A stretch of DNA of 32,000 nt from Pseudoalteromonas translucida KMM 520 (lineage in GTDB: Bacteria > Pseudomonadota > Gammaproteobacteria > Enterobacterales > Alteromonadaceae), in assembly GCF_001465295.1 (NCBI RefSeq), contig NZ_CP011034.1, positions 2,040,001-2,072,000 on the forward strand, read 5' to 3'. Of the stretch, positions 1 through 26,057 are shown piece after piece (the stretch's first letter is position 1; the number at the start of each line of letters is the position of its first letter). Under the pieces are notes generated by a model, which searched no databases, was not told where the DNA came from, and saw only the letters and a program-made list of their open reading frames with translations. A program made the translations under genes and the position numbers.

Positions 1-893
1 ATGTTATTATTTCCATACTCCTTAATGACTCTATTAATGCTTTTTAAATTATTTTGCTCATTACGTGCATTAACTAATTGTTGAGAAATTTGCTCTAGCT
101 CTTTAGTAACCAGTCCGGCTATACCTTCTATATCGACTAATTGCTGCGCCTCTCGATATGCTTGTAGGCGAACTTCAGATTCATCTAATTGAATCCGCAA
201 TTGCGACAACCGTGTGTTTAACCAACTTGTTGCCTGTTGCGTGATCCCCATTTTGGCACGCATTTGGTTGTCGATATAAACTTCACCAACCGTATTTGCA
301 ACCAAGGCTGCAAGTTTAGAGTCACTTGACTCAAAACTAACTCTAACTAATTGTGTTTTATGAATTGGGGTAACAATTAATGCTTTATTAAATATACTAA
401 GCAAATCTTGCATTTGTTGCTCAACTTGATCTTCATACGAGAGCGTAGCAACTTCTTTTTTATTTAAAAAAGGCAGTAAGTCTTTAATTAATATATTTAG
501 TTCTTTAAAAATTAATATATTTAGTTCATTAAAGATTGAAGGTTTAGGAGTAAAGTCTATATGTGACTGCAAATCTAACTTAGTAATAACTTCTCGTGCA
601 ATACTGTCTGACTTTATTACTTCAAATTGAGTTAAATAATATTCTTTTTGATTTGAGTCTAAACCATATATTTCTTCAAAACTAACCGCTTTAGCCTGCT
701 CTGCTTCAATTAATAAAGTTGCACTTGCTTTATATTTAGGCGTTAAAGTTAACGTAATCATTATAGCTAATAATGTAATGATTATCGCAAAACTCAAAAT
801 TCGCCATTTTGCTTGCTTGATAACATTAAAGTGAATACCAAGATCAATAACATCATCATTATTATTATTAAATTTATCTGATTGTTTATTCAT
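1..893 (-). CDS. Polysaccharide co-polymerase / chain-length determinant (Wzz/GumC/Wzc type), N-terminal part; continues past the left window edge
   Basis: Absent from the ORF track because it runs off the window. Reverse-strand ATG at 891-893 with AAGG just upstream, open to position 1. My translation: MNKQSDKFNNNNDDVIDLGIHFNVIKQAKWRILSFAIIITLLAIMITLTLTPKYKASATLLIEAEQAKAVSFEEIYGLDSNQKEYYLTQFEVIKSDSIAREVITKL... This gives a short cytoplasmic N-terminus, one TM helix, Wzz-domain-like motifs, then a long coiled-coil-like segment. It starts 20 nt after the OPX gene stop. Confidence 0.7.
   Translation of the reverse strand, partial: MNKQSDKFNNNNDDVIDLGIHFNVIKQAKWRILSFAIIITLLAIMITLTLTPKYKASATLLIEAEQAKAVSFEEIYGLDSNQKEYYLTQFEVIKSDSIAREVITKLDLQSHIDFTPKPSIFNELNILIFKELNILIKDLLPFLNKKEVATLSYEDQVEQQMQDLLSIFNKALIVTPIHKTQLVRVSFESSDSKLAALVANTVGEVYIDNQMRAKMGITQQATSWLNTRLSQLRIQLDESEVRLQAYREAQQLVDIEGIAGLVTKELEQISQQLVNARNEQNNLKSINRVIKEYGNNN
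487..534 (-). repeat. In-frame 24-nt tandem duplication (2 copies, 22/24 identical) inside the co-polymerase gene
   Basis: attaatatatttagttctttaaaa (487-510) versus attaatatatttagttcattaaag (511-534). It encodes a duplicated octapeptide (...FNELNILI FKELNILI KD...). Confidence 0.85.
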
Positions 894-913
894 TTATCAC
901 TGCCTTTAACGGC

Positions 914-1435
914 TTAAAACAAGCGCTGTTCTATTTTAATGGTGTCGCCCGCTGCAATTTGACTGTTTAAACTGCCTCTATGTTGCTGCTCTTTGGTTTG
1001 CTCTTTAAAAATATATATTTTATCTATTGATGCTCGCTCTGTTAATCCACCACCAAGTGCAATTGCTTGATTTACTGTCATTGCCGGCTGATAAGGGTAT
1101 GCTCCTGGGTTATTAACTTCGCCGTGAATATAAAAAGGCCGATATTGTGTAACCTGAGCATACACATTGGGGTTCACTAAATAATCAGGCTGTAAACCAC
1201 GGCTTATTATTTTCTCTACCTGTGATGTATTCAGGCCAGCGAGTTTAACTTTTCCCAAAAAAGGATAATTAACTATGCCACTGTTACCTAATAATGCTGT
1301 TACATCTAAATCAGGTTGGCCAAAAACTTTTATCTCTATTTTGTCACCTGGTCCTAAAGTATAGTTTTGTGCACTTTGGCCAAAACTATTAAAACTCAAT
1401 AAAAAAGCCAGGCAAACAATCATCCTAGATTTCAT
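914..1435 (-). CDS. Short OPX-family polysaccharide export protein (Poly_export/PES motif plus one SLBB-like domain), Wza-like but only 173 aa
   Basis: Signal peptide MKSRMIVCLAFLLSFNSFGQ. PES-type motif YTLGPGDKIEIKVFGQPDLD. SLBB-like FYIHGEVNNPGAYPY...MTVNQAIALGGGL. ATGA start/stop overlap with the upstream beta-barrel gene. Confidence 0.8.
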   Translation of the reverse strand: MKSRMIVCLAFLLSFNSFGQSAQNYTLGPGDKIEIKVFGQPDLDVTALLGNSGIVNYPFLGKVKLAGLNTSQVEKIISRGLQPDYLVNPNVYAQVTQYRPFYIHGEVNNPGAYPYQPAMTVNQAIALGGGLTERASIDKIYIFKEQTKEQQHRGSLNSQIAAGDTIKIEQRLF

Positions 1436-2649
1436 CGATTAACCTTCAAAGCAAAGGTAAAATTAATCCCGATAATGACACGATCAAATGTAATCGCATC
1501 TTGATTAGAGTTTTTATCTATAAAATCCACATAGCTAGATACCATCCCAAAGTTACTAACTAAATAATTTAAACCTAATCGGGCCGCTGTTGTTTTATCT
1601 TGTCTACCAATATCACCAGTGTATTGCTCGTCTGCATAATTTAAACTTGCCAACGAACTAAAGTAATTACTCCAATTATGATCCCAGGTAATGTTATAAA
1701 CACTCTCTTTAATATAATCACCTGCTACCAAGGGATCTTTAGCTGAGCGGCTAGTTAAAACTTGTACCGATGAATAAGTAAGTGGCTGCCAAAGCACAGC
1801 GGCTTCCCAACTTAAACCGGTAAAATCTTCACGTAAGTCTGAAATAAAATCTTTGTCTTGATAACCAACTTTGAAGGTCCCTGATGTTACCGCCGTTGCC
1901 TCCCACTCTATTCCTAGTAATATTTTTCTGTCATCTGAATCTCGTGAAATACCATTAGCTTGCAAAATATCGTAGCGGTAATTTTCTTTTTTTAACTCCA
2001 AAAAAGTACGTGTCGATGAGAGCGTATTATAGTAACCGGTTATTCCCACTAAAGTTTTATCATAGTCCCGATACTGGGAAACGGGTCTAAAGTTTTGATA
2101 TTTTTTATTGAAAAAACCAGCATTAAGTGCAATCTGAGCTTTAGAGCTTTTTGCGCCATATTCATAACGCGCTGTCACATTTTGCTGTTCGTATTTCACT
2201 AATTCATTAACAATATCTCCCAAACCTTCGGTTAAACCACTTCCTCTAGGTTCATATAACCAATCTGCGTCACCTTTAATATCGAATCTATGCTGTTGGG
2301 TAAACTCTTTATGAGCACTTGCGGCAATGGTCACTTGTGTAAAGTTATCTGTGGTATCTTTATTATGAAAGGACGTACTTGACCCAAGGTTAAGCTTATA
2401 ATTGTCGGGGCCATCTTCTATTACTGCAGAAATATTTGGGGAAATACTCCATATTAACCGCGACTCCTCGTTAGTTGGTGTTCTAAATATATTATTATTA
2501 GAACTAACTCCTGTTTGCAGCGTAGGCGTTATTTCGGCACCATTTTTCGTTATAATGCTACCTGGTTTTAGATTAGCAAGTGCATAAGGGCTGGCTCCTA
2601 TGCAAACTACTAATAAGCTAGGAGTAATCACATTAATAGGCATTTTCAT
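1432..2649 (-). CDS. Outer-membrane beta-barrel protein of the EPS export operon (EpsL-like / GfcD-like partner of the short OPX)
   Basis: Signal peptide ending ...ASPYALA|N. The 405-aa sequence is rich in alternating Y/W/F-x-polar stretches typical of beta-strands (VTARYEYG, LVGITGYYN, LLGIEWEATA, FKVGYQDKD, LGLNYLVSNFG, IIGINFTFAL). It sits between the priming transferase and the OPX gene with overlapping stops and starts. The family name is inference. Confidence 0.55.
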   Translation of the reverse strand: MKMPINVITPSLLVVCIGASPYALANLKPGSIITKNGAEITPTLQTGVSSNNNIFRTPTNEESRLIWSISPNISAVIEDGPDNYKLNLGSSTSFHNKDTTDNFTQVTIAASAHKEFTQQHRFDIKGDADWLYEPRGSGLTEGLGDIVNELVKYEQQNVTARYEYGAKSSKAQIALNAGFFNKKYQNFRPVSQYRDYDKTLVGITGYYNTLSSTRTFLELKKENYRYDILQANGISRDSDDRKILLGIEWEATAVTSGTFKVGYQDKDFISDLREDFTGLSWEAAVLWQPLTYSSVQVLTSRSAKDPLVAGDYIKESVYNITWDHNWSNYFSSLASLNYADEQYTGDIGRQDKTTAARLGLNYLVSNFGMVSSYVDFIDKNSNQDAITFDRVIIGINFTFALKVNR

Positions 2650-4036
2650 TCTTAAATCCTTTGATGATAGTTATGAATATTATTTTTATATCAAACAATA
2701 ATGACCAGTTCTTAATATAGTGTAGGTCATACTCCACACGTTTCGCCATTTTTATTAATGTATCTGTTTCACCACGCCAACCGTTAATTTGCGCCCACCC
2801 TGTAATACCTGGTTTAGCTTTGTGCCTAAACATATAAAATTCTACTTTTTTTCTGTACTCTTCATTGTGCGCGACAGCATGAGGTCTTGGCCCAACAATA
2901 GACATATCACCGTCAAGCACATTCAAAAACTGGGGAAGTTCATCAAGACTTGTGCGTCGTAAAAATCGACCTAACTTTGTTATCCTTACATCATTTTTTG
3001 TAACTTGAGTTATCAAATTACTGTTTTCTGTTACTGTCATTGAACGGAATTTCCATACTTTTATTTTGCGTCCGTCTAGTCCGTAACGATCTTGCTTAAA
3101 TATTACTGGACCAGCTGATGTCAGCTTTACTGCAGTTGCAATCACTAATAATAATGGCGAAATCAATAATAATATAACTATTGAGAACACAACGTCTTCT
3201 GTACGTTTTATAAACTCATGAGCACCAATACATGGTGACTCAAATACACTTAATGTATCAACCTCACCAACATGTTCAATACGCGCATGTATTAGATTAG
3301 AAAGAAGAAAGTCGGGTATTATATGCACATCAACTGTGGTATCACCCAGCTGTAATAAAATGTCTGCAATACGTTTTTCTGCTTTCATGGGAAGAGCAAT
3401 ATATAAGACATTAACCCTACCTTCTCTTGCAGAATCAACGGCTTCTTGTATGTTGCCAGCAACATCATGAGACGCTAACTTACTAAACAAACGATCTGGA
3501 GTTCTGTCATCATAAAATCCTAAAAACTTAAAGCCTAACTCATCATTTTTTTCAATTTCATCATATAAGTACGCAGCGGTTTCTGTTGCGCCAATAATAG
3601 CCACATTACGCAAATATAAACCAAATTTACGACGATTACGCTTATACAAGTAAACAGCCAAGCGCCATAAATATAAATAAAGCATACTTAATAAAAACCA
3701 TAAACTAATGCCAATCCGAGATAAGGATTCTGAAAACTTAAAAATAAATGATATAAAAAACAAACAAGCGAATGAGACTAACAAAGCGCCCCAAACGCAC
3801 AGCATCATCACTCTAAATTTCCCTGCACGCCACGATCTATAAGTAGAAAACACTTCAGCGCAATATAGGTAAATGAGTGCAACGCTTAACACTGACACCA
3901 TATAAAAAGGGCTTAAGTTAAAGTCATAAAATAAGGCGGAACATTGAAAAGCAAAAAATAATGCAATAATATCGAAAAGTCTGTAAAAACAGCCATCTGA
4001 TGAACCTGATAGCTTAAATGTCCTTGAAGAATTCAT
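2633..4036 (-). CDS. Undecaprenyl-phosphate hexose-1-phosphate transferase (polyisoprenyl-phosphate priming glycosyltransferase, WcaJ/EpsB type)
   Basis: 467 aa. N-terminal multi-TM block, central Rossmann-like IIGATETAAYLYDEI, and a C-terminal Bac_transf domain (PVIFKQDRYGLDGRKIKVWKFRSM...DELPQFLNVLDGDMSIVGPRP...KPGITGWAQING). Confidence 0.9.
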   Translation of the reverse strand: MNSSRTFKLSGSSDGCFYRLFDIIALFFAFQCSALFYDFNLSPFYMVSVLSVALIYLYCAEVFSTYRSWRAGKFRVMMLCVWGALLVSFACLFFISFIFKFSESLSRIGISLWFLLSMLYLYLWRLAVYLYKRNRRKFGLYLRNVAIIGATETAAYLYDEIEKNDELGFKFLGFYDDRTPDRLFSKLASHDVAGNIQEAVDSAREGRVNVLYIALPMKAEKRIADILLQLGDTTVDVHIIPDFLLSNLIHARIEHVGEVDTLSVFESPCIGAHEFIKRTEDVVFSIVILLLISPLLLVIATAVKLTSAGPVIFKQDRYGLDGRKIKVWKFRSMTVTENSNLITQVTKNDVRITKLGRFLRRTSLDELPQFLNVLDGDMSIVGPRPHAVAHNEEYRKKVEFYMFRHKAKPGITGWAQINGWRGETDTLIKMAKRVEYDLHYIKNWSLLFDIKIIFITIIKGFKNENAY

Positions 4037-4783
4037 AACAATTAATCCCTATGGTAGACCATACTGAGTGAAAAAATTATCACTAGATTTCAGAATTAAT
4101 ACTAAGTTAACAACTCAAGTTGCACAATTAACATAAAGTGCGTTTACTTATAAATATCATGCTATAGTTTGTTTCAATGTATGTTGTTTATATAAAAACA
4201 AACATGAGTAAACATTACTGTAATAGCTAAACTTTTACTTTTTTATAGAGGAACACATTAAAGTACATGTTTTACTTTAGCTTAGTAATGTAAGGAACTA
4301 CTTCTCATTAACGTGAACGGAGTAGCCATAATATTATTTAATTGCAACTAAGCAGGAAGCTATTGGTTTATTTAGTTCCCCCCCTTTAATACCTACAGAG
4401 GGTTAAACACACTGCCGCTATTACTTCTTTATAGATACTTTACTATTTTGCCCGGCAGGACCATATATACAAATAACAGCGGTGTAATTTACCACCACTA
4501 CTTGGTGGGCTCGAAGACAAATAAAATTCAATTTTATTTAGAACCTATTTAATAAATTAAATAAACAAAAAAAAACGTGATAAAAACAAACGTAAACTAA
4601 TTAAAATACCATAAAAACTTCTGTTTACGATGTGTTCGCATTGTAAAAATGAATATAACTATAGCCCCTTCTTAAGTTACTAATAAATTTTATCTTTTAT
4701 ATCAAAGTTATGTATAAATTAACAACTCTCGTTAATCTAGACTAAAATATGATTATCTCCTTTTGGATTAAAGTAGGTCATCA
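4037..4783. promoter_or_regulatory. 747-bp AT-rich divergent intergenic region upstream of both the priming-transferase operon (-) and the A-PCP-AT3 gene (+); presumed promoters and long leaders
   Basis: No six-frame ORF of 60 aa or more. It is flanked by divergent start codons at 4036 (-) and 4784 (+). It contains a C7 tract (4378-4384), an A9 tract and a small hairpin ccacca-ctact-tggtgg (4492-4508). No individual promoter elements could be assigned with confidence. Confidence 0.5.
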
Positions 4784-7366
4784 ATGTTTAAGGACACTAA
4801 TAAACTCACTTCTAAACTTCGCAGCAATAGCATAGCGGCTGTAGAAAGCGATCAAAAAATAACTTATTCACTATTAATTGAAAAAGCAGAAGGCATTGCC
4901 TCAAAGTTAGGATCACAAAGAAGTCTTATTTTATTAGAGTGTACTCCAAGTATTGATTGGCTAATATCTTACGTAGCTATTTTACTAGGTAAGCATGTTG
5001 CTTTGATGCTTCCTCCTAATAATGAGGAAATGGCTTCTCGGTTAGGAGAAGCTTTCGACGCTAACTTTATAATAAAAACTACTAATGGCATCGACGTTGA
5101 GAAACTAAGTAGTAAAAAAGTAAATTTACATGAAGATCTCTGCTTACTTTTATCTACTTCTGGCTCGACTGGAAGCCCTAAATGTGTAAAATTATCCTAT
5201 GACAATATCGAGGCAAATACAGTCTCTATAATTGAATATTTAGGTATAGATAAACAAGACATTGGCATTGTTAATTTACCAACCAATTATTCATATGGCC
5301 TTTCAATTGTTAATACTCATTTATTTTGTGGTGCAACAATTGGGTTTAATACTCATGCAATTTACACAAAAGAGTTTTGGAATTTTTGTAAAGAACAAAA
5401 CGCAACAAGTTTTGCCGGTGTACCTCACAATTTCGATCTATTATCAAAAATTAATTATCAACAATTAATCCCCTCATCTATAAAGTACTTCACACAAGCT
5501 GGCGGTAAACTGGCAACGAATATTGTTTCTGAATTTGCGAGTTTTGCAAAAGCTAGAGGCTGCAAATTTTTTGTTATGTATGGACAAACAGAAGCCTCAC
5601 CGAGAATGTCTTACTTACCACCGGATATGTGTGAATCAAACCCAAATTCAATAGGTATACCAATCCCTAGAGGAGAATTCAAAGTAGTTGATGATAAAAA
5701 TAAAGAGCTCCCACCTGGAGAACAAGGCGAATTAATTTATAACGGCCCGAACGTGATGATGGGCTATGCCATAGAAAAAGATGATCTAAAAAAAGATAAA
5801 GAAACATTCGAATTAAAAACTGGTGACATTGCTAAAAAATCCTTAGATGGACTTTATTTTGTAACAGGAAGGATGAGCCGTTTTATAAAAGTATTTGGCA
5901 ACAGGATAAGTTTGGATCAAATAGAGGTTATGTGCAATGAACAGCATTTTGATGCGATTTGTACTGGAGTAGATGAAAAGCTGTTAATAGTTACTCGCCA
6001 AGAAAGTAAAATCAATCATATTAATGAATACTTTCAACAACACTTAAAGCTGCCTAAATCATCGATTAAAGTAGTGTTTAAAAAAGAGTTTCCTACCTTA
6101 GACACAGGTAAGTTCGACTATAACTCTATAAAAATGGAACTTACTCAATCTAACAAAAAAAATAACGAGCAATCGGCTTTAAGTATTAATGATACTTACA
6201 TAAGTATTTTTGGGGAGCTAGCAAAAAACAAATCGTATTCATTTTTTGATTTAGGTGGAGACTCTCTGACTTTTTTTTCAATCTCAATAGAATTAGAAGA
6301 AAAATTAGGCTACTTACCAGAAAACTGGACAAATATATCAATTGCTGGGCTAGAATCTTTACCCAAAAAGCTTATAAATAACTCTAACACTAAAAGTACT
6401 TCATTTAAAAACTTAGTGAATTTAGATTCACTAAGAGCATTTGCTTGTATATTAGTAGTTGCTTTTCATGTGTTTGGTAGCGAGCCACACTATGGCCTGG
6501 GTTATGCAATGGACTCACCGTGGCGTTCTATTTTTGATGTTTTTGATTTAATTCGAATACCTTTATTTACTGCTCTTGCAGGAATTGTGTTTATAGCAAT
6601 ACTTTCAAGTGAAAATAAAATCTTTCAGTTTTTATTTTGTAAAATAACATCTCTATTATTACCAGCCGTTGTTGTTTCAATATTATATTTTCTTTTAAGG
6701 AACATAATAGGTAAAGAAGATGGTGACTTAGGTACATACTTAATATCGGGTTATTTACATTTGTGGTATCTCTACTCACTATTTGTGATAGCAACGGTTA
6801 TAGGAACTATACACTTACGATTTAGACCAAGCTTTTATACTTACATAATAAGTATGATTTTACTTTACGCATTGAGTCTGACTATAAGCGGGCATGTTTT
6901 GTTTTGGGTTTACGCCAGTGTTGAACTAGCACCGTATTTCATTCTAGGAATGCTACTTTATAAGCACCCTCATAAGTTTTTGAATAAAACTATTTTAACA
7001 ATTGCAGCCATCCTAGCTTTATTAGGTACTTGCTTACGTGTAGCTTCATTTTTTGAAATAGTAAATAGAGATTTAATCTTGGTATATTTTACTTTTATAA
7101 CCTCAATAAGCCTTATAATTATATCTTATTTTTTCTTTCCTAAAATCAAAGTTATCCAATGGATTGGCCTATATTCATACTCCATATACCTGTGGCACCC
7201 TGCAGCAGCGAGTACAGCCAGAACAATCCTTACAACTATCGGTATTGATAATCACTTCTTACTATTTTTAGTTCTATTAATTGCAGGCATTTTAATACCT
7301 GTTGTCATGTATAAAGCAGCAAAATTTTTACCCAGATTAATTAGAATGTCTCTAGTTGGGCGGTAA
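4784..7366 (+). CDS. Tri-domain fusion: AMP-forming adenylation domain + phosphopantetheine carrier (PCP/ACP) + acyltransferase-3 (AT3, OafA/NolL-type) integral membrane domain
   Basis: Adenylation cores: ITYSLLIEKAEGIA (A1), LLLSTSGSTGSPKCVKLS (A3), YGQTEASP (A5), GELIYNGPNVMMGY (A6), KTGDIA...GRMSRFIKVFGNRISLDQIE (A7/A8), PTLDTGKFDY (A10). Carrier motif FFDLGGDSLTFFSISIELEEKLG, with Ser494 at nt 6263-6265. AT3 signature LDSLRAFACILVVAFHVFG, with His562 at nt 6467-6469, followed by about 10 hydrophobic segments to the C-terminus. Confidence 0.8.
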   Translation: MFKDTNKLTSKLRSNSIAAVESDQKITYSLLIEKAEGIASKLGSQRSLILLECTPSIDWLISYVAILLGKHVALMLPPNNEEMASRLGEAFDANFIIKTTNGIDVEKLSSKKVNLHEDLCLLLSTSGSTGSPKCVKLSYDNIEANTVSIIEYLGIDKQDIGIVNLPTNYSYGLSIVNTHLFCGATIGFNTHAIYTKEFWNFCKEQNATSFAGVPHNFDLLSKINYQQLIPSSIKYFTQAGGKLATNIVSEFASFAKARGCKFFVMYGQTEASPRMSYLPPDMCESNPNSIGIPIPRGEFKVVDDKNKELPPGEQGELIYNGPNVMMGYAIEKDDLKKDKETFELKTGDIAKKSLDGLYFVTGRMSRFIKVFGNRISLDQIEVMCNEQHFDAICTGVDEKLLIVTRQESKINHINEYFQQHLKLPKSSIKVVFKKEFPTLDTGKFDYNSIKMELTQSNKKNNEQSALSINDTYISIFGELAKNKSYSFFDLGGDSLTFFSISIELEEKLGYLPENWTNISIAGLESLPKKLINNSNTKSTSFKNLVNLDSLRAFACILVVAFHVFGSEPHYGLGYAMDSPWRSIFDVFDLIRIPLFTALAGIVFIAILSSENKIFQFLFCKITSLLLPAVVVSILYFLLRNIIGKEDGDLGTYLISGYLHLWYLYSLFVIATVIGTIHLRFRPSFYTYIISMILLYALSLTISGHVLFWVYASVELAPYFILGMLLYKHPHKFLNKTILTIAAILALLGTCLRVASFFEIVNRDLILVYFTFITSISLIIISYFFFPKIKVIQWIGLYSYSIYLWHPAAASTARTILTTIGIDNHFLLFLVLLIAGILIPVVMYKAAKFLPRLIRMSLVGR

Positions 7367-7388
7367 TTGATACACTGTGATAATGTTC

Positions 7389-7406
7389 CAGAACTGACTA
7401 GTTCTG
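7389..7406 (+). terminator. Weak hairpin downstream of the A-PCP-AT3 gene (cagaact-gact-agttctg, then aattt)
   Basis: A 7-bp perfect stem with a 4-nt loop, 23 nt after the TAA at 7364-7366. The stem is AT-rich and the U-tract is poor, so terminator function is uncertain. Confidence 0.3.
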
Positions 7407-7530
7407 AATTTACCTGTTGGCCCAAAAGTAAAGGGTTGCGTACGGGATATATTCAAACAGAACTGCTGCAGCAAAAAGTTTCTGTCGAGCCGTGCAATAA
7501 CACCGCTCGCCTCCGTTGGGTGGATTACTT

Positions 7531-8256
7531 CTAATGTACAACTAAATTGTAAAAAAATTTCGGTATACCAATTACATACCTATTAAACAAACGCTGAGGC
7601 TCTACAAGTAAGCGATAAAACCACTCTAACCCCAATGTTCTAAGTATTTCAGGGGCTCTTTTAACCTTCCCTGCTTGAAAGTCAATAATTGCCCCTCCAC
7701 AAATGATCAAGGAGGGAACATCAATGCTTGATAATATCACGGCTAACTTTTCCTGCTTGGGCATCCCCATAGCAAGCACAACGCAGTTTAAAGCTGTTTT
7801 TTCTGAGTTATTTTTAAAATTTTCTATATAGAGATTATCTTGCTCAAAACCATTCATTTTTATTACTTCTTCTGTTTTGAATAAAGTTTTCGAACCTTGA
7901 GTTAACCAAGGTTCAGTTGCCCCGTAGGCGAAAAATTTAACAGTTCGATTTGACATTTTTAGCGCGTTAACAATAGCCGGAATTACATCTGTACCATTAA
8001 AGTTATCTTTAGGATCTATTCCATATATTTTACAAGCTAATTTCACACCTATGCCATCTCTTAAAAGGTGTGTTAAGGATAGAAAGTTTTCGCGTACACT
8101 ATCATCGTCATGCATTAAATTGATACTGTGCTGGTTAACAAACCCAACTGTGTTTGATAACTCACTCTGTAGGAGGCTTGCTATAAATCCATCTAAATCA
8201 TCATAATTTAGGTAGCTAATTTTATTTAAAATTTCTTTGTTACTCATTGCTATCAT
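7531..8256 (-). CDS. WecB/TagA/CpsF-family (GT26) glycosyltransferase
   Basis: 241 aa with a typical GT26 layout: GFVNQHSINL..., DGIGVKLACKIYG..., NGTDVIP..., FFAYGA..., LAMGMPKQE..., ICGGAIIDFQAGKVKRAP...LGLEWFYRLLVEPQRLFNRY. The start could be M4 (nt 8247). Confidence 0.8.
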   Translation of the reverse strand: MIAMSNKEILNKISYLNYDDLDGFIASLLQSELSNTVGFVNQHSINLMHDDDSVRENFLSLTHLLRDGIGVKLACKIYGIDPKDNFNGTDVIPAIVNALKMSNRTVKFFAYGATEPWLTQGSKTLFKTEEVIKMNGFEQDNLYIENFKNNSEKTALNCVVLAMGMPKQEKLAVILSSIDVPSLIICGGAIIDFQAGKVKRAPEILRTLGLEWFYRLLVEPQRLFNRYVIGIPKFFYNLVVH

Positions 8257-9439
8257 CCCCTCTATCTGTCCGTATCCAAGACTTTTGCCGATTTTTAACG
8301 AATGATTTATAAATATTTATCTTAGCTAATAGATACTTATACAAAGTTCCGAAATCTTTTAAAGGTATTATCTCTCTGCCCATTACGAACCATACAAGAC
8401 CTAAACTAAGTAAAAGAATAAACAGTGAAATAATAGAAAAATAGAACGGAATAAATATATTAAAAAGCATCATTATCAAAAAAAAGAAAGAACAACAAAA
8501 AACTATAAAGAACCATAAAACAGTTGGTGGAAGCATGGCATCAAAAATCGTAAAACAGCTTTTTATTTTAAGCTGAGCTAGGCTTCTTATAAATTTTTTT
8601 GGTAACAAGGTAATTGAGCTTAAGTGACCGTGCTCCCATCTCGTACGCTGAGTGTTGTTTCCAATAACTGAAGTAGGAAAGTAACTTAACACTTGAGAAA
8701 AGCTATCATAAATTATTTTTTCTCCTTGGGCAGTTAATTTTAAACCTAGCTCTAAATCCTCAACAATACTACCTGAAGCAAACGTAATATTATTTAGAAC
8801 TCTCGCAGGAAAGGCCATACCTGATCCCTGCAGTTGACAGTTTATTTTAAAAAAAGCAAGACCTTGTGGTCGAGTAATGTTTTTTATAGCCCAAGCAAAT
8901 TGGGCCACATTTGTTGTAATTGTAGCGTGAGCATGTGACTTCATTACGTATGCGGATTGAATAACAGCGTCTTCCATAATACAACGCCGAGTTAGGGTAT
9001 AAAAACTTCCCTCTGTAAACTCACAGTCAGCGTCAAATATTATAATTACTGAAGGATTAAACGGTTTTAAATACTCTACACCGGCTTCAATTGCGTAACC
9101 TTTACCAACAAAGTCCAGACTGTTTCTAATTAAAACTTTTGCTCCAAATGATTTGGCGATTGAAGCTGTCGCGTCTGTACAGTTATCTGCTATAACAAGC
9201 ACTTTAGATAAGCTAACAATTTCTCTTTTTAGCTTTGTAAGTGTATCTTTAATTATCTTTTCTTCATTATGCGCAGGTATAACTATATAAGCATTATCAA
9301 CGTCACTGTTAATGGCCATATTTTTATTTGTACCTCGATAATAAAGGCCAATAATTAACTCAATTGATAAAAATAGTGTTGGCAAAAAGATAAATATAAA
9401 TACAATTAAACCAATGAATATATCTATAAAACTTATCAT
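8240..9439 (-). CDS. Membrane-embedded family-2 glycosyltransferase with the D, DxD, xED, QxxRW signature of processive synthase-type GT2s
   Basis: N-terminal TM helix, VIPAHNEE, FDADCEF, GSIVEDLELG, QRTRWEHG, then 3-4 C-terminal TM helices (TVLWFFIVFCCSFFFLIMMLFNIFIPFYFSIISLFILLLSLGLVWFV). Confidence 0.8.
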   Translation of the reverse strand: MISFIDIFIGLIVFIFIFLPTLFLSIELIIGLYYRGTNKNMAINSDVDNAYIVIPAHNEEKIIKDTLTKLKREIVSLSKVLVIADNCTDATASIAKSFGAKVLIRNSLDFVGKGYAIEAGVEYLKPFNPSVIIIFDADCEFTEGSFYTLTRRCIMEDAVIQSAYVMKSHAHATITTNVAQFAWAIKNITRPQGLAFFKINCQLQGSGMAFPARVLNNITFASGSIVEDLELGLKLTAQGEKIIYDSFSQVLSYFPTSVIGNNTQRTRWEHGHLSSITLLPKKFIRSLAQLKIKSCFTIFDAMLPPTVLWFFIVFCCSFFFLIMMLFNIFIPFYFSIISLFILLLSLGLVWFVMGREIIPLKDFGTLYKYLLAKINIYKSFVKNRQKSWIRTDRGDDSNE

Positions 9440-10644
9440 TTCACACCATAAATTAGAGCGGCTAGTTTACTCACTTCCTGCTCAATATCATGTTTTTCAG
9501 CTACAGCTTTATAAGCTAAGAAAACCATACTCTTAATTTCGTCATCTGACATTTTAATAAACTTGGTTATCGAGTCTTTTATAACTAATGTATCACCTGC
9601 GTGAAATAAAAGGCCTTGCTTTTCATTCGTTATAAGCTCCGGGATACCAGCAATATAAGTGGTCATCACAGGTCTGCCTACTGCCATTGCTTCCATTATG
9701 GCTACAGGTAATCCTTCTGCAAAGCTAGGTAGGATCATAGCATCTGACGCTAATAATAAATTATGTACTTCCTCAGAACTTATCCATCCAGTAATCCGAA
9801 CATTTTTTCCCAAGTTATTGGCTTTGATGAATTTTTCGATATCACCTCGCATCTCACCATCACCCGCTAAAATTAAATTGATATTATCTCCCTCATCTAA
9901 AACCATTTTTAATGCTTTAAGTAAAAGTAATTGTCCTTTTTGTTCACATAACCGACCAATACATAATAATTGTTTAATCTCGCTAGCCTGAGGTAGCAAT
10001 GGCTGTCCTTTTAAAAAGTTATCGTCAAGACCACACCGTACTATCTCAATTTTCTTCCAATCATTATAATTTGCCCATCTAAATAGCTGAGACCTACAAT
10101 AGCTAGTTATAGCAACAACAAACTTTGCATGACTAATCTTTTCTTTTAAGTGCAATCCTAATGGTTTATCAAACTCCTCAGGGCCATGCACTGTAAAACT
10201 ATAATCAACACCTGAGATCATACCCGCTAACATGGTGACTTCTGCGGAGTTTGTACCAAAGTGTGCGTGAATATGTTTGCTATCAGTTTCACAGCAATAA
10301 GCTGATAATTTACATGCTTCAACAAGGTAAATAAGGTGATATAACACGCCTCTTTCAGACATTTTTGCCATATTAACTGCTGCTATAAAAGCTGTCGTTA
10401 CTCTTTTTGGATACTTTATGAATGCTTTAAAAAATATTGGTAATAAGGGCCTAATTCCATTTTCTAAAATATAATTTGTTTTTTCCTGTTCGCAAAAATC
10501 AACTTTATCTTTTAAATCAGCATCCCAGCCTCTGAGTGCAACTCTCTGAACAATGAAACCTTTTTTTTCGAGTTCTAAAATCTCTCTTCTAATAAAAGTG
10601 TGGCTAACTTTTGGGTACTGGTTGATAAAATATGTTATGTTCAT
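9436..10644 (-). CDS. GT4 (GT-B, WcaL-like) glycosyltransferase
   Basis: 402 aa. N-terminal YFINQYPKVSHTFIRREILELEKKG resembles WcaL-type GTs. The C-terminal EX7E region is PSFAEGLPVAIMEAMAVGRPVMTT. ATGA-type 4-nt overlaps at both ends. Confidence 0.85.
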   Translation of the reverse strand: MNITYFINQYPKVSHTFIRREILELEKKGFIVQRVALRGWDADLKDKVDFCEQEKTNYILENGIRPLLPIFFKAFIKYPKRVTTAFIAAVNMAKMSERGVLYHLIYLVEACKLSAYCCETDSKHIHAHFGTNSAEVTMLAGMISGVDYSFTVHGPEEFDKPLGLHLKEKISHAKFVVAITSYCRSQLFRWANYNDWKKIEIVRCGLDDNFLKGQPLLPQASEIKQLLCIGRLCEQKGQLLLLKALKMVLDEGDNINLILAGDGEMRGDIEKFIKANNLGKNVRITGWISSEEVHNLLLASDAMILPSFAEGLPVAIMEAMAVGRPVMTTYIAGIPELITNEKQGLLFHAGDTLVIKDSITKFIKMSDDEIKSMVFLAYKAVAEKHDIEQEVSKLAALIYGVK

Positions 10645-11156
10645 TTTTTGTCACCTTTAAAAGTGATTTTTGCAGGGATCCCAACAGCTATACTATTGGC
10701 AGGTACATCTTTATTCACCAGAGTCATAGCACCTATTGTACAATTAGAGCCAATTTTAATATCTCCTAAAATCATACTATTGGCGCCAATATCAACATTA
10801 TCACCTATTTGAGGACATCCACTCCCCTCATATTTATTGCCAATAGTTATACCGTGCCTAAGCGTGCACTGCTTGCCAATGACAACGTCAGGATGAATGA
10901 AGATTTGCCCAAAATGCCATATTTTCAAGCCAGGTCCAACTTTAACTTCTTTGGGTATACTGATACCAAATAAGCTTTCAAATAACCTAAACAGAACATA
11001 ATAGGGGATATATAATATTTTTTTTATTATGTCATTATTCACAGTCTCAATACGAGCTCCTAATCTGTAAATAAAAATACAATATATTGACTGCTCTCTT
11101 AGAAATGCGCTATAGCCCCCATACCTTTTTAAATCATATTTAAAATATTTACTCAT
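10641..11156 (-). CDS. Hexapeptide-repeat (LbH) O-acetyltransferase, serine-acetyltransferase/WcaB-like
   Basis: 171 aa. Left-handed beta-helix repeats IGKQCTLRHGITIGN...IGDNVDIGANSMILGDIKIGSNCTIGAMTLV. Confidence 0.8.
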   Translation of the reverse strand: MSKYFKYDLKRYGGYSAFLREQSIYCIFIYRLGARIETVNNDIIKKILYIPYYVLFRLFESLFGISIPKEVKVGPGLKIWHFGQIFIHPDVVIGKQCTLRHGITIGNKYEGSGCPQIGDNVDIGANSMILGDIKIGSNCTIGAMTLVNKDVPANSIAVGIPAKITFKGDKK

Positions 11157-12382
11157 ACATCTTCCTTATCTAGGTTAGTACTTTGACAATTGAATTGTGA
11201 ATAAACAAAAAATATTCCTATAAAAAACCAGAAATACCAATTATATGAGAGGTAAAAAAGCAGGTTATCTGAATAACCAACAACTAAATACGATATTACT
11301 AACCCAATAATTATTGCACCGCCTTTTTTATCTACTTTAAAATACTTTATCATTCGAGCCAGTATCATAGAAAAAAGAAACAGATAAGCTATTACCCCAA
11401 AAAAACCCATATCAAAGGCAATTTGTACGTAAGTATTATGGGCATCAAAGCTAGTATCAGATTCAAGTGGGAAAAATTCTAAAAAATAGTATGAAAACGA
11501 GTTATAGCCGTGTCCAAAAAATGGTTTCTCCATTATATAGCCCCAAGCTGCACTCCAAACAACGTTCCTCCACGCATAAGAGTTTAGCTTTCCTCCCTCC
11601 TCTAAAATATCAATGCTATTTCCTGAGAAAATATCTAAAATACGCTCTTGGATAGAGGGAATTAGGAATGCTATAAATGTCAATAAAATCAAGTACACTA
11701 TATACCTACGCTCAATTAATAAGCCATAGACCAAAAACACTATAACCAGTGCAATCCAAGCACTTCTCGTTTTGGTAGCAAGTAGGCAAATGATGCAAAA
11801 CATAAATATAATTTTGGCGTGTTTTATAAATTTCACATCAAAAGCAATTAGCGTAGATTTAAAAGTAAAAAAACAAATAGACGAGATCAGCACTAAGTAA
11901 AAAGCAAAAATATTCGGGTGAGAAAAACTCCCAAAAACTCTAAAACCATCATTACCAGTACTTCCGGCTGGGAATATAAATTCAACACCAGCAAATACAA
12001 AAGGGATAATAGAGGAATAAATTATTAACTTTATTAAGACCTTCACCTCGGCCTCTTTTTTTACATAATAAAACGGGATCAAAAACCAAGAGAAATATGT
12101 AATAACAGTAAAAAAAGAACGTAGAGACGATATTTTATCCGGTGAAATACTTATAGATAAAAGTCCGATAACAATGAAAGGCGACCAGATTTTTATAATA
12201 CTTTTGGAAACTAGCATATTATTTTTAAGTATAAGGTTGCATACACATAACACTAAAATAAAATTAATTATTGCACCAAAGCCAATCCCTCCAACTCTAG
12301 TAAGATCCAAAATTGGGTCTAAAGAAGATCTCAAAAGTAATAAAATGAATATAGTTTGTGAAAAGTAAAAAAATGATTTCAT
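11153..12382 (-). CDS. O-antigen-ligase/Wzy_C-family polytopic membrane protein, probable EPS repeat-unit polymerase (Wzy)
   Basis: 409 aa with about 10-11 TM segments. Wzy_C-type motifs ATKTRSAWIAL and FDAHNTYVQIAFDMGFFG. It lies inside the GT/wzx operon with ATGA overlaps on both sides. Confidence 0.7.
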   Translation of the reverse strand: MKSFFYFSQTIFILLLLRSSLDPILDLTRVGGIGFGAIINFILVLCVCNLILKNNMLVSKSIIKIWSPFIVIGLLSISISPDKISSLRSFFTVITYFSWFLIPFYYVKKEAEVKVLIKLIIYSSIIPFVFAGVEFIFPAGSTGNDGFRVFGSFSHPNIFAFYLVLISSICFFTFKSTLIAFDVKFIKHAKIIFMFCIICLLATKTRSAWIALVIVFLVYGLLIERRYIVYLILLTFIAFLIPSIQERILDIFSGNSIDILEEGGKLNSYAWRNVVWSAAWGYIMEKPFFGHGYNSFSYYFLEFFPLESDTSFDAHNTYVQIAFDMGFFGVIAYLFLFSMILARMIKYFKVDKKGGAIIIGLVISYLVVGYSDNLLFYLSYNWYFWFFIGIFFVYSQFNCQSTNLDKEDV

Positions 12383-13233
12383 TTCTTAATCAGTTTCCAC
12401 TTAATACGACGCAGAAAAGTTTTCATTCTGAAGCCCAGTAATAAAAACAGAGCACTTTGAAAATTCATTTTTACTTGCTTATAACTCAAAAGCGTATCTG
12501 TTAACTCAACCTTTTCAATAAAGCTCAATGGCTCCAGTTTATTTTTCAATAATAAAAAAGCAAACTTTATTTTTGATGCTTTTTTATCAGAAATCCTCTC
12601 CCAACTATGAGTGGTATCAACAATATATGAATATGTATTAATATTAAAAAAAGTACCATATTGCTTAGCGACACGAATCCACATTTCCCAATCTTGCAAT
12701 GCTGGCATGTCTTCTGCAAATCCCCCTAAAGCTTTCATATAGGCTGTTTTAGTAAAAATTTGATTACCAATTAGGTTTTCTGTTCTAAGATCTCTGTAGT
12801 TCACTTTCAACGATTGATGAGTTTTTAATTTATGTGTCGCTGTTATTTCAATCATAGAATCAAACAAGCCAGCAATACTTGTAGTATCTTTAAATTCATT
12901 CCAGTAATGAACAAATTTTTCTACACGCCAACTTTCAAAATAGTCATCATCATCTAGTCCGGTTATAAAAACCCCTTCGGCTAGTGAGATTGCTTTATTA
13001 CGCCCATAACACGCCCCCTTAGATTCGCCTGATGAATTAATAGTGCTTATTAATAGCCCTTTACACTCCATTTCCTTTAGGTAGTTGTGCGTACCATCTG
13101 TAGAGCCATCGTCGGCTACCACTATTTGTATATTGTCGTAACTTTGAATCAACACGGAATTTACAGCCCGTTTTAATAACTCAACTCTATTGAACGTAGT
13201 TATATATACTGTTACTTTCATAAGATTACTCAT
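12379..13233 (-). CDS. Family-2 glycosyltransferase (soluble GT-A type)
   Basis: VTVYITTFNR...SVLIQSY...VVADDGSTDGT...GLDDDDYF are classic GT2 N-terminal motifs. Confidence 0.85.
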   Translation of the reverse strand: MSNLMKVTVYITTFNRVELLKRAVNSVLIQSYDNIQIVVADDGSTDGTHNYLKEMECKGLLISTINSSGESKGACYGRNKAISLAEGVFITGLDDDDYFESWRVEKFVHYWNEFKDTTSIAGLFDSMIEITATHKLKTHQSLKVNYRDLRTENLIGNQIFTKTAYMKALGGFAEDMPALQDWEMWIRVAKQYGTFFNINTYSYIVDTTHSWERISDKKASKIKFAFLLLKNKLEPLSFIEKVELTDTLLSYKQVKMNFQSALFLLLGFRMKTFLRRIKWKLIKK

Positions 13234-13475
13234 ACTTTATCTTCTAAGGTAAAACACAATGCACTGGCTCTACCTTATTATTAAGTAAGTTTCTTCGATG
13301 ATATTTAAATTTATTATTTTTAATATCAAAAACTCACCTCAAAATAAAATAATACCTTCGTCATGACATTTAAAAATTAATATAACTTTCTCTATTTCAG
13401 ATTTCTCTAGTGTTTTTATTGGAATTAACTTAATAACTCTGTGTTAAAAAATGCTCAGTGTTTTTATAAATAAAC

Positions 13476-14753
13476 TTAGCATAACCACGTTTTTAATTTA
13501 GTGATTTTATACACTTCTATCGACATCAATATATTCCATAATACTAAGCTAATACTTACAGCTAAAGCAGCGCCAATTGCTTTATATTCGGGAACTAAAA
13601 TAAATAACAGTACAATATTAGTTAATAAAGTAATGAGTAATGCTTTCAAAGAACGCTTTTCATTCCCAGTCATATTGAGGACTAAACCAACTGAGCCAAA
13701 ACATATATTGAGAATTTGGCCAACACTTAAAATTATAAGGATCAGATGGGAAGCTGCATATTGATCTCCAAACAAGATTCTTATAAACCTTTCACCTAGG
13801 AAAATTAAAATAATTACAATAGGTAATGAAAAAATAGCGTTTAATTTTACACTTTTTGTCAAAAGAGCCTGTGTAGAGTTCATATCACCACTACGATATA
13901 ACCTAGCTACTTTTGGCCCTATAATAAGATTCACAGAAGTAAAGCCTAAAGTAACTAATGTCACTCCTTGTAAAGCAACTTTAAAAAAACCAACTGACTC
14001 TTTATCTGCAAAATAACCTAAAAAAACACTTGCAAGCTCCGAATTCATCGTGCTGATAAGTACCATCAACGTAAAAGGTAATAACGCAAAATGCCACCTT
14101 TTAAAATAGTATTCTGCCTTAATACTTTTTAGCTTATGAGCGCGTACTTTTAATATTAGTCCTGCCCCTAACAAAAGCGTTAATGCTGATGTGATTAATT
14201 GCACTTTTATTAGTAATAAGCTGCTGAACTCTATTTGTAACGCTATAAAAATCAAGTAAATAAAAACAGCTAAAAAGGGCATTAAAATAAACTCAGGTAA
14301 TAAACCTAAAATTGGCTTTCTAAAGCCATTTAATATAGCGCCTTGATTTGTGCAGAAGCTTTTTATTGGGATCAGCAGCACCGCAAACCAAAGCAAGTTA
14401 GCAGTCTCACCTTTGATAATACCTGTGTATAAAAAAGCTAGAATAGCAAGCATCACCACAGCAGAAGTGCTAACAATAAATGCTGTTGACCACTGCAGTA
14501 AGCCTTTTAGTTCACTCCACTTACTCTCCAACTCAGCATGTGCTATTTCGCGTATTAACAACTGGGGTAAACCAGCAATAACTGGAATCGTTGCCATAGC
14601 AATTATCGATAAAATATAAGTGTATAATCCATACTGTTCTGGCCCTAAATAGCGTGCAAGAATAACACCGGCAATAACAGACAATACTCTGCTAACAACT
14701 TGTAGGCCGGCTGTACCCAAAAATTTATTTAAAATCACTGGCGATTGATTCAA
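13476..14753 (-). CDS. wzx: Wzx-type oligosaccharide flippase (MOP/PST family)
   Basis: 425 aa with about 12 TM segments. N-terminal VVSRVLSVIAGVILARYLGPEQYGLYTY is typical of polysaccharide-biosynthesis (PST) flippases. It is the first gene of the minus-strand GT operon. Confidence 0.85.
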   Translation of the reverse strand: MNQSPVILNKFLGTAGLQVVSRVLSVIAGVILARYLGPEQYGLYTYILSIIAMATIPVIAGLPQLLIREIAHAELESKWSELKGLLQWSTAFIVSTSAVVMLAILAFLYTGIIKGETANLLWFAVLLIPIKSFCTNQGAILNGFRKPILGLLPEFILMPFLAVFIYLIFIALQIEFSSLLLIKVQLITSALTLLLGAGLILKVRAHKLKSIKAEYYFKRWHFALLPFTLMVLISTMNSELASVFLGYFADKESVGFFKVALQGVTLVTLGFTSVNLIIGPKVARLYRSGDMNSTQALLTKSVKLNAIFSLPIVIILIFLGERFIRILFGDQYAASHLILIILSVGQILNICFGSVGLVLNMTGNEKRSLKALLITLLTNIVLLFILVPEYKAIGAALAVSISLVLWNILMSIEVYKITKLKTWLC

Positions 14754-14993
14754 AAAACATCCTTATAGTTATTTGTTATTGGCTAAATATAAAACAATCT
14801 ATCTTATAATAGACCAACTTATCGCAATAAACTTTTTATCTACTTAGTAAATTCAACTTCAATGTACATCACAATGTACTTTTTATTTCACGGCATTCAT
14901 TTATCATTGGGAGTACAACCTCCTATTAAGTCATTAACAGTTATTCGATCTACTTTATTGCTAGTTTTGTGTTTAATGCTAATAATATAAGAA
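14754..14993. promoter_or_regulatory. Divergent intergenic region between wzx (-) and lapG (+)
   Basis: 240 bp of AT-rich sequence with no ORF between divergent starts. It contains a direct repeat caatgtac...caatgtac (14860-14867 and 14872-14879). Promoter elements were not assigned. Confidence 0.4.
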
Positions 14994-17712: not shown

Positions 17713-17737
17713 CCTATTTTTTAAACAAGGGTCGATC

Positions 17738-18280: not shown

Positions 18281-18287
18281 CTTTATT

Positions 18288-18323
18288 AAATATAAATGCA
18301 GCCTTAGCGCTGCGTTTATATTT
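18288..18323 (+). terminator. Rho-independent terminator after the small secreted-protein gene
   Basis: aaatataaatgcagc-cttagc-gctgcgtttatattt forms a 15-bp stem with one G-U pair and a GC-rich top (gcagc/gctgc). The 3' arm runs into a T-rich tract (gtttatattttg). Confidence 0.75.
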
Positions 18324-18333
18324 TGAGAACACT

Positions 18334-21515: not shown

Positions 21516-21519
21516 GTAT

Positions 21520-22299: not shown

Positions 22300-22308
22300 G
22301 GTACTACT

Positions 22309-22635: not shown

Positions 22636-22645
22636 GCTCAGTCCT

Positions 22646-23560: not shown

Positions 23561-23561
23561 A

Positions 23562-24188: not shown

Positions 24189-24193
24189 AAAAA

Positions 24194-25998: not shown

Positions 25999-26000
25999 AT

Positions 26001-26027
26001 AAAAAAAGCCCAGTTAAACAACTGAGC
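26001..26027 (-). terminator. Rho-independent terminator after fabF
   Basis: Minus-strand transcript reads GCUCAGUU-GUUU-AACUGGGC followed by U7. The stem is 8 bp with one G-U pair and is extendable by A-U pairs. Confidence 0.7.
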
Positions 26028-26057
26028 TCTTATAGTCTGGTCTGTTGTTAAAAAAGA

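Follow-up and report, generated by a model that had tools for sequence, protein, structure and literature searches.

A fused adenylation-carrier-acyltransferase-3 protein in an exopolysaccharide locus of Pseudoalteromonas translucida: a candidate Dlt-like, carrier-dependent membrane O-acyltransferase

Introduction

In the Dlt system, the carrier protein DltC presents a thioester to the membrane acyltransferase DltB, and Gram-negative envelope acylation systems include Aas (acyl-acyl carrier protein synthetase/2-acyl-glycerophosphoethanolamine acyltransferase) and AlmEFG (glycine on the lipid A of Vibrio). For the membrane-bound acyltransferase-3 (AT3) family, a 2022 review describes proteins consisting of AT3 only as having a cytoplasmic N-terminus and about ten transmembrane (TM) helices, and on the acyl donor it says no more than 'a donor in the cytoplasm'; SGNH and alanine-racemase fusions are listed, and a fusion of AT3 to adenylation and carrier domains is absent (PMC9558356). 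In the human enzyme HGSNAT, acetyl-CoA lies linearly in a pore spanning the whole membrane domain; its acetyl group is at the far mouth, and of the molecule only the 3'-phosphoadenosine is at the cytosolic one (PMC11199644). Here we describe a gene that joins all three kinds of domain (adenylation, carrier and AT3) in one polypeptide. It is an ATG-initiated open reading frame (ORF) of 860 aa at 4784..7366 (+) in a 32,000-nt stretch of the Pseudoalteromonas translucida KMM 520 genome (NZ_CP011034.1, positions 2,040,001 to 2,072,000; hereafter the window), where it sits between both minus-strand operons of one complete Wzx/Wzy-type exopolysaccharide (EPS) locus. The product is 100% identical to PTRA_a2216 of this strain, which is named 'hypothetical protein' or 'Carrier domain-containing protein' in databases.

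The analysis suggests, with a probability that we put at roughly 0.6, that the gene product is a self-contained, carrier-dependent transmembrane O-acyltransferase with a Dlt-like logic, whose acceptor is most likely the local EPS. The individual domains are known and the architecture is already visible in databases, the design being widespread and apparently unstudied.

Domain architecture of the fusion protein

Pfam, alignments and AlphaFold2 (AF2) models agree that the single 860-aa frame holds three modules, as the initial annotation had proposed: an ANL adenylation (A) domain, a central carrier domain and a C-terminal AT3 membrane domain (Table 1). Conservation was assessed in an alignment of 116 homologues of 800-1000 aa, and then in one (A2) of the 87 homologues with the AT3 architecture. 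From these alignments, the models and Pfam, the three domains were judged real and CATALYTICALLY intact, and by the sequence features tested the protein belongs with the ANL enzymes, the carrier proteins and the AT3 acyltransferases alike. In an AF2 model of residues 462-860 (pLDDT 84.7, pTM 0.81), ten long helices come after a small helical bundle. No condensation domain, nor any other chain-extending or releasing domain (C, TE or R), was found in the 860-aa protein, for which Pfam gives AMP-binding, PP-binding and Acyl_transf_3 only; in this it differs from modular non-ribosomal peptide synthetases, which have such a domain beside the adenylation-carrier pair.

The positions first assigned to Ser494 (nt 6263-6265), to His562 (nt 6467-6469) and to the 747-bp gap upstream of the gene proved to be right. 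The fusion also cannot be an assembly or frameshift artefact that joins separate genes, because it recurs as a single ORF in dozens of independent genomes of other species across phyla.

Predicted activation and loading of the acyl group

The AMP-binding model (PF00501) matches residues 111-328 with E 4e-42 and 144.8 bits against a cut-off of 29.9. The completeness of the ANL domain, claimed from the first reading of the sequence, is borne out by the location and conservation of its core motifs: the A3 P-loop TSGSTGSPK (residues 125-133), A5 MYGQTEA (265-271, with YGQTE at 266-270), A6 GELIYNGPNVMMGY (315-328), A7 KTGD (345-348, with TGD at 346-348), the A8 hinge GRMSRFIKVFGNR (362-374, family pattern GRxxRFxKxxGxR) and A10 G442-K443. 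These cores are invariant or nearly so across the 87-116 homologues, and Lys443 (nt 6110-6112) is invariant in all 116. The AF2 model has the two-subdomain ANL fold with pLDDT >90 over most of residues 11-450, and Foldseek aligned the N-terminal 450-600 residues with MenE, DltA, PltF and the EntE-EntB and McyG adenylation-carrier didomains, at E-values of 5e-23 to 1e-21 for MenE, DltA, PltF and EntE-EntB.

The nearest solved sequences are the stand-alone A enzymes 3wvn and 3wv4 (E 9e-26 and 5e-23). The entries 3wv4, 3wvn and 3wv5 are listed as VinN and 5JJP as CmiS6; VinN-type enzymes load beta-amino acids onto discrete acyl carrier proteins (ACPs), and the Asp that binds the amino group is D235 in PheA and D230 in VinN (PMC11253843). 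Pocket residues were assigned by alignment to the 3wvn chain and through that chain to PheA numbering (Table 1). NLPTNYSYGLS (residues 164-174) aligns with RMSVSWDFGLY of CmiS6, which places Ser170 at the position of the amino-group Asp. The early observation that an amino-contacting Asp is missing thus extends to the whole family, in which Ser, Cys or Thr stands at this site in 93 of 93 members examined, sisters linked to MBOAT genes included. The pocket is nearly identical in AT3-fused (48), SGNH-fused (6) and stand-alone (39) sequences. Since the amino-binding Asp is never present in the family, alpha- and beta-amino acids are unlikely substrates; the polar character of the pocket suggests a small polar acid.

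A dicarboxylate substrate, read from the invariant Arg274, was considered and dropped as weak. The residue does not qualify as a clamp for a carboxylate: Lys-Arg is retained there in the 3wvn chain, and the VinN-type enzymes include some, such as CmiS6, with a substrate (3-aminononanoate) that has no second carboxylate.

The central region carries a GGDSL motif; its Ser494, to which phosphopantetheine is predicted to attach, is the same in all 116 homologues. A profile of this region (A1), built from 30 homologues and searched against the PDB, had as its best matches the peptidyl carrier protein (PCP) of McyG (E 3e-5), the type II PCP 4pwv (E 7.6e-5) and many ACPs, and all of the 60 matches listed are carrier proteins or carrier-containing synthetases. 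Several homologues score above the Pfam PP-binding cut-off on their own (e.g., P0090 at 32.5 bits), and Foldseek matched the small helical bundle of the AF2 model to the PCP 4pxh_D with a probability of 0.90. Taken together, profile and model indicate that the central region is a genuine carrier domain. The only other carrier protein in the window is the housekeeping AcpP of the fab cluster.

The AT3 membrane domain

Acyl_transf_3 (PF01757) matches residues 546-843 over positions 3-325 of its 326 (E 2.4e-24, 86.4 bits against a cut-off of 31), and AF2 models and a hydropathy scan place ten long helices between residues 547 and 846. In the first helix, R551 (nt 6434-6436) and H562 stand 11 residues apart as R-x10-H, a pair kept in 95% of homologues, as with R14/H25 of OafA/OafB. 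Further conserved residues are Y657/H659/W661 and I801-Y-L-W-H805 (IYLWH805). Pfam, AF2 and conservation are thus in accord with the AT3 domain of about ten TM helices and His562 signature that the initial annotation described. The N-terminus of the domain is inferred to be cytoplasmic (N-in) from the ATP-dependent domains fused to it; such a topology, with a cytoplasmic A-carrier module preceding AT3, would fit the N-in layout of AT3-only proteins.

A PDB sequence search with the AT3 part gave no match to any solved structure. Its sole solved fold relative is human HGSNAT (8vli/8vly/8vkj), found by Foldseek with a probability of 1.00 and TM-scores of 0.40-0.43, at a sequence identity of 14-16% and with weak E-values of 0.06-0.12. 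When the AT3 part alone served as query in a word-indexed homologue search, 8 matches were obtained. Many stand-alone AT3 proteins reach 210-330 bits against the fused AT3 domain, and because of these scores the AT3 part does not appear to be a radically new subtype. Where the contexts of stand-alone relatives were examined, they lacked any A or carrier gene and gave no further information.

Sister architectures of the adenylation-carrier module

Among the 120 best database matches of the protein, five end in an SGNH domain (Lipase_GDSL_2) instead of AT3. These sister proteins are 888-910 aa long, their A-carrier module is 39-43% identical to that of the 860-aa protein, and their pocket residues are the same. 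A single hydrophobic helix follows the carrier domain (about residues 545-563 in P0062), so that the SGNH domain would lie outside the cytoplasm. In both of the two loci examined, an MBOAT gene (472-473 aa) begins 1-3 nt after the A-carrier-SGNH gene. The MBOAT protein of locus L006, the one tested against NCBIfam, matches the DltB model TIGR04091 over its full length (E 1.5e-50, below the equivalog cut-off).

The sister pair looks like a fused DltA-DltC-DltD-like protein beside a DltB-like protein, and would reproduce the four Dlt roles of adenylation enzyme, carrier, MBOAT and extracytoplasmic SGNH-like protein. The A-carrier module therewith appears to be wired to two unrelated membrane O-acyltransferase folds, AT3 and MBOAT, as is expected if the acyl-S-carrier is the donor for both. 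For the Dlt-like reading put forward initially, this comparison is the strongest support, and it favours a donor, acyl-S-phosphopantetheine, that is made in cis. The accompanying idea that all steps are fused fails, as the gene has no DltD or SGNH partner, either fused or adjacent. Neither an SGNH domain nor an MBOAT was found when the window's annotated ORFs of 100 aa or more were surveyed, and an MBOAT is present only beside the sister architecture.

Stand-alone A enzymes of the same clade are 37-41% identical, score 450-520 bits against the family hidden Markov model and have the same pocket residues. They occur in a cassette with the order small ACP, FabG-like reductase, A enzyme, LuxE and LuxC, beside PseG- and PseH-like genes. 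One example, from Marinomonas atlantica (L047:7375-13519), consists of genes for a PseG-like protein, a PseH-like GNAT, a 79-aa ACP, a FabG-like short-chain dehydrogenase/reductase, the A enzyme, LuxE and LuxC, and about 20 other loci have the same gene-length pattern. An ACP/FabG-like/AMP-ligase/LuxE/LuxC cassette has been noted, uncharacterised, in flagellin glycosylation islands (FGI) of Aeromonas (group II FGI) and Enterobacteriaceae (PMC7874193, PMC4875605). Because AT3, MBOAT/SGNH and ACP-cassette contexts coexist in it, the A clade as a whole would seem to serve glycan acylation by way of carrier proteins.

Distribution of the fusion

Nearly all of the 120 best protein matches have 820-970 aa with PF00501 and PF01757; the matches are spread over Gamma- and Alphaproteobacteria, Actinomycetota and Bacteroidota. 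A locus scan with one genome per species yielded at least 565 relatives of the A-domain clade, of which the best 80 loci were examined. In 41 of these 80, from other species of Actinomycetota and Proteobacteria (e.g., Micromonospora, Mycobacterium, Rhodococcus, Nocardia, Arthrobacter, Streptomyces, Asticcacaulis, Ensifer and Kiloniella), all three domains are in one ORF. As these loci and nearly all of the best proteins keep the fusion, it appears to be under selection as one unit. Contrary to the rarity that had been implied, the architecture is thus widespread, with hundreds of species over several phyla; a full-text search of the open-access literature alone, aimed at the A-carrier-AT3 fusion or its sister systems, found no paper describing the fusion, so that the search for the architecture elsewhere succeeded and that for a characterised member did not.

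The closest relative of the 860-aa protein among the matches listed is 53% identical. Pseudoalteromonas is a well-sampled genus, and because the closest relative is merely this similar, the gene is strain-specific within it.

When about 235 neighbours of about 40 fused loci were compared with Pfam, no universal partner gene emerged; alpha/beta-hydrolases are minority neighbours in a few fused loci. In three proteobacterial genomes, of the genera Alteromonas, Sphingobium and Xylophilus, a second stand-alone AT3 gene lies directly downstream (L001:12587-13597, L002:12638-13753 and L007:12745-13866), the Alteromonas and Sphingobium copies being 47% identical; no such gene is found next to the A-carrier-AT3 gene of the window. 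In 7-11 of about 40 fused loci, all actinobacterial (e.g., L005:6219-9853), an ATP-binding cassette (ABC) importer lies upstream of and divergent from the tri-domain gene, its parts being a binding protein (SBP_bac_1/11), a double permease and a TOBE_2-containing ATPase; the arrangement may be linked to the uptake of substrate or be no more than lineage synteny. A recurrent 394-aa carrier-AT3 protein (P0134/P0260) has no adenylation domain. Its locus in an Alteromonas-like metagenome-assembled genome (MAG; L090:8001-9185) is syntenic with that of the full-length gene of Alteromonas portus (L001), and a check for a split system found no A-domain remnant and no A gene nearby; the protein may be a truncated derivative or may be loaded in trans.

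Proposed mechanism and alternatives

From its intact catalytic motifs, the cytoplasmic ANL domain is expected to adenylate a free carboxylic acid with ATP. The acyl group would then move to the phosphopantetheine thiol on Ser494, a step that requires a phosphopantetheinyl transferase (PPTase). The carrier, which lies about 15 residues from the first TM helix, would thread its acyl-phosphopantetheine arm into the AT3 pore at the cytoplasmic mouth, by analogy with the HGSNAT pore and with DltC-DltB; chemically, the carrier-bound arm matches the pantetheine portion of acyl-CoA, minus the nucleotide. Finally, AT3 (R551, H562, H659 and H805) would acylate a hydroxyl group of a glycan outside the cytoplasm. 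The acceptor in P. translucida would most likely be the Wzx/Wzy-type EPS of the surrounding locus, and the polymer would then bear the AT3-added acyl group plus any acetyl from the hexapeptide transferase. It is about an even bet that this design has a more general meaning, namely that AT3 acyltransferases can take an acyl-S-phosphopantetheinyl carrier and not acyl-CoA as donor, and that the A-carrier module constitutes a widespread second 'Dlt-type' pathway, which plugs into AT3 or into MBOAT plus SGNH and adds CoA-independent, non-acetyl, non-amino acyl groups to surface glycans of Proteobacteria and Actinomycetota.

Several observations weigh against this mechanism or against the EPS as its target. 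The PP-binding model (PF00550) matches the single sequence at residues 486-509 with 17.6 bits, under its gathering cut-off of 20.8, so that of the domain boundaries proposed from the start those of AMP-binding and Acyl_transf_3 were confirmed by Pfam, and that of the carrier had to be rescued by profile and fold. There is no PPTase gene in the window. In the full-length AF2 model (mean pLDDT 90.3) each domain is predicted with confidence, and their mutual placement is not reliable because of a pTM of 0.56. Most homologues are orphan genes outside polysaccharide loci, with heterogeneous neighbours, for which reason the EPS is a likely and not a proven acceptor. In addition, no A or carrier gene was found near stand-alone AT3 relatives in the two loci examined, and since such close stand-alone proteins exist, the AT3 subfamily can presumably also work with a soluble donor.

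The alternative that survives best keeps the same carrier-to-AT3 chemistry and directs it to another envelope acceptor (lipopolysaccharide or lipooligosaccharide, peptidoglycan, periplasmic glucans or a glycolipid); that the gene lies in the EPS locus would then be incidental. It gains from the orphan state of most homologues, including that of Pseudoalteromonas sp. SSM20 (49% identical) and the actinobacterial ones, and from the fact that the gene is transcribed separately, from the strand opposite to that of the EPS operons. However, the gene is flanked by the priming/export and assembly operons of one EPS locus and matches it in GC content, and the homologue of Alteromonas portus adjoins genes for GT2 glycosyltransferases, Wzx and further AT3 proteins. 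We consider another acceptor unlikely, though it deserves to be kept in view.

Activation of a long-chain fatty acid, with an Aas-like remodelling or lipidation of a membrane lipid or lipoglycan, is improbable. The NCBIfam models for a long-chain fatty-acid-CoA ligase (NF004837, E 1e-40) and for Aas (NF006386, E 4e-36) do match the A domain, but with scores far under the family cut-offs and alongside similar sub-threshold matches to MenE, malonyl-CoA synthase and DltA. Gly267 stands, by motif alignment, at the position of the chain-length-limiting Trp of acetyl-CoA synthetase (Acs); against this, the predicted pocket is polar (Ser/Cys170, Tyr171, Ser174, His/Tyr215, Thr237 and Arg274), the nearest solved sequences activate small acids and beta-amino acids, and the protein has no PlsC-type domain.

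A true Dlt analogue, which would esterify an amino acid such as D-alanine to the polymer and so lower its negative charge, would share the overall logic of A domain, carrier and membrane acyltransferase; the sister system even has a DltB-like MBOAT and an SGNH domain in the DltD-like position, and DltA is among the structural matches. Such a substrate is nevertheless highly improbable, given the consistent replacement of the residue equivalent to PheA D235 and VinN D230 and the distance of DltA in sequence (E 1.6e-17). That AT3 uses acyl-CoA while the A-carrier part serves another enzyme or membrane anchoring, as the close stand-alone AT3 proteins might suggest, or that the ORF is an artefact after all, is scarcely credible in view of the recurrence of the fusion across phyla with the carrier Ser and A10 Lys invariant, and of the parallel coupling of the module to MBOAT and SGNH, which argues for a donor role.

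Genomic context

The assembly operon, convergent on the A-carrier-AT3 gene, encodes a WecG-family glycosyltransferase (GT), GT2, GT4, a hexapeptide acetyltransferase, a Wzy-like polymerase, a second GT2 and a Wzx-like flippase. The Wzz/Wzc-like frame of the priming/export operon leaves the window at its left edge, and this operon therefore continues beyond it. As the initial annotation had stated, the locus has a separate hexapeptide acetyltransferase, and the A-carrier-AT3 gene is the sole plus-strand gene between 914 and 14753. Its description as an inserted decoration module finds no compositional support: at a GC content of 0.328 and a third-position GC content (GC3) of 0.25, the gene falls inside the range of the locus (GC 0.31-0.37 in the other genes, GC3 0.25-0.30 in the flanking EPS genes) and hence is not marked as a separate insertion.

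Table 1. Features of the fusion gene, its substrate pocket, its surroundings and the sister loci. Nucleotide positions refer to the window unless a locus is named; pocket residues are those of the 860-aa protein.
Feature	Position	Strand	Basis or remark
Complete adenylation-carrier-AT3 gene	4784..7366	+	Pfam; identity to PTRA_a2216; AF2 model
ANL adenylation domain, residues 1-455, compact N-terminal part	4784..6148	+	Pfam, motifs, Foldseek
A4-equivalent pocket segment Y169-S170-Y171-G172-L173-S174	5288..5305	+	alignment to 3wvn chain
Carrier (PCP/ACP-like) domain, residues ~466-531, predicted phosphopantetheine site Ser494	6179..6376	+	profile, conservation, AF2
AT3 (Acyl_transf_3) membrane domain, residues 546-860, ~10 TM helices	6419..7363	+	Pfam, AF2, conservation
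Pocket residue equivalent to PheA D235	Ser170		family S, C or T, never D
Pocket residue equivalent to PheA A236	Tyr171
Pocket residue equivalent to PheA W239	Ser174
Pocket residue equivalent to PheA T278	His215		family H or Y
Pocket residue equivalent to PheA I299	Thr237
Pocket residue equivalent to PheA A301	Ala239
Pocket residue equivalent to PheA A322	Met265
Pocket residue equivalent to PheA I330	Pro273		family A or P
Pocket residue equivalent to PheA C331	Arg274		invariant in family
Pocket residue equivalent to PheA K517	Lys443
Priming/export operon	1..4036	-
5' part of Wzz/Wzc-like chain-length/export gene, open frame 297 aa	1-893	-	leaves window at left edge
Poly_export/Wza-like protein	914-1435	-
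BBP2_2 porin	1432-2649	-
Bac_transf priming transferase	2633-4036	-
Divergent 747-bp intergenic region, GC 0.285, between priming/export operon and adenylation-carrier-AT3 gene	4037..4783	.
Assembly operon, convergent on adenylation-carrier-AT3 gene	7531..14753	-
Hexapeptide acetyltransferase	10641-11156	-
Adenylation-carrier-TM-SGNH and MBOAT gene pairs	L006:10001-14087; L093:6001-10157		gammaproteobacterial MAG; metagenome contig

In the 747-bp region upstream of the gene, the best sigma-70-like site on the plus strand is at 4719-4748 (TTAACA, an 18-nt spacer and TAAAAT, 36 nt before the ATG). Because promoter-like sites are no commoner in this region than in shuffled sequence, a promoter of the gene's own stays a plausible guess. 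An Rfam scan of the region gave no match. A 35-nt direct repeat with 71% identity is located near its two ends (4087-4121 and 4699-4733), each copy overlapping a TTAACA promoter-like hexamer; a regulator might bind there and act on both divergent units.

Adjoining the EPS locus, at 14994-17712, are genes for a LapG-like protease (Peptidase_C93) and a LapD-like receptor for cyclic di-GMP (LapD_MoxY_N, GGDEF, EAL), which as listed overlap by 71 nt (15652-15722). They are followed by an ORF of 180 aa at 17738-18280 (GC 0.41, GC3 0.23) without significant family match and, after it in the region 17738-19659, by a second Wzy_C/O-antigen-ligase-like gene on the plus strand, outside the main EPS operons. 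Genes of the polysaccharide/Lap region (1-19600), the 180-aa ORF excepted, have a GC content of 0.31-0.37, and those of the housekeeping block from 19600 to 32000 (tatD, pilZ, holB, tmk, yceG, pabC-like, fabF, acpP, fabG, fabD and plsX) one of 0.38-0.44. The AT-richer part of the window fits a variable, horizontally exchanged surface-polysaccharide island.

Comparison with known systems

Acyl supply and transmembrane transfer in AT3 and bacterial MBOAT O-acyltransferases are an open question on which the fusion could help. If the 860-aa protein is indeed a carrier-dependent O-acyltransferase, its hard-wired donor enzymes together with the AT3 pore would show that the pantetheine arm is the recognised element, and the protein would offer a tractable single-protein system, with a covalently trappable intermediate, for the reconstitution of transmembrane acylation. 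It would also point to an unrecognised acyl decoration on exopolysaccharides and actinobacterial envelopes, and, through the sister pair of A-carrier-SGNH and MBOAT, the Dlt paradigm would reach past both Firmicutes and D-alanine.

With AT3-only O-acyltransferases such as WbaK, Oac, Lag-1, ExoZ/ExoH and OpgC (PMC9558356), the protein shares PF01757, about ten TM helices, R-x10-H, the absence of an SGNH domain and a location in a polysaccharide cluster. The known members are thought to use cytoplasmic acyl-CoA, whereas the 860-aa protein has an A-carrier module at its N-terminus. HGSNAT, whose fold matches that of the AT3 part, likewise holds a pantetheine arm, that of acetyl-CoA, in a membrane-spanning pore (PMC11199644), but it is a human lysosomal enzyme that N-acetylates glucosamine with acetyl-CoA as donor and has no carrier domain.

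The A domain has the YGQTE core and the Arg at the position of PheA 331 in common with VinN-type enzymes. These bind a beta-amino group through Asp230, where the 860-aa protein has Ser170, and act in macrolactam polyketide pathways and not in envelope modification. In the cassettes of flagellin glycosylation and pseudaminic acid, the AMP-ligase is the nearest stand-alone relative of the A domain and is encoded next to a small ACP; there, however, the proteins are separate and soluble, AT3 is lacking and transfer is presumably made by a cytoplasmic GNAT onto a nucleotide sugar. Aas and AlmEFG also combine an ANL enzyme and a carrier that feed a membrane acyltransferase (established knowledge, to which the NF006386 match may be added), but the acyltransferases in them, of PlsC or LpxL type, modify lipids at the cytoplasmic face and have no AT3 domain.

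The closest parallel in logic is with the Dlt system of Gram-positive bacteria (DltA, DltC, the MBOAT protein DltB, and DltD). The 860-aa protein differs from it in having AT3 and not MBOAT, in the fusion of the A and carrier domains to this membrane part, in a substrate that is probably not D-alanine, as the Asp for the amino group is missing, and in its host, where it is encoded in a Gram-negative EPS locus. Since it lacks an MBOAT, a DltD and the amino-binding Asp, it falls outside the Dlt family, but it would work like DltA-DltC-DltB, with an ATP-dependent ANL enzyme loading a carrier and a polytopic membrane acyltransferase modifying an extracytoplasmic polymer.

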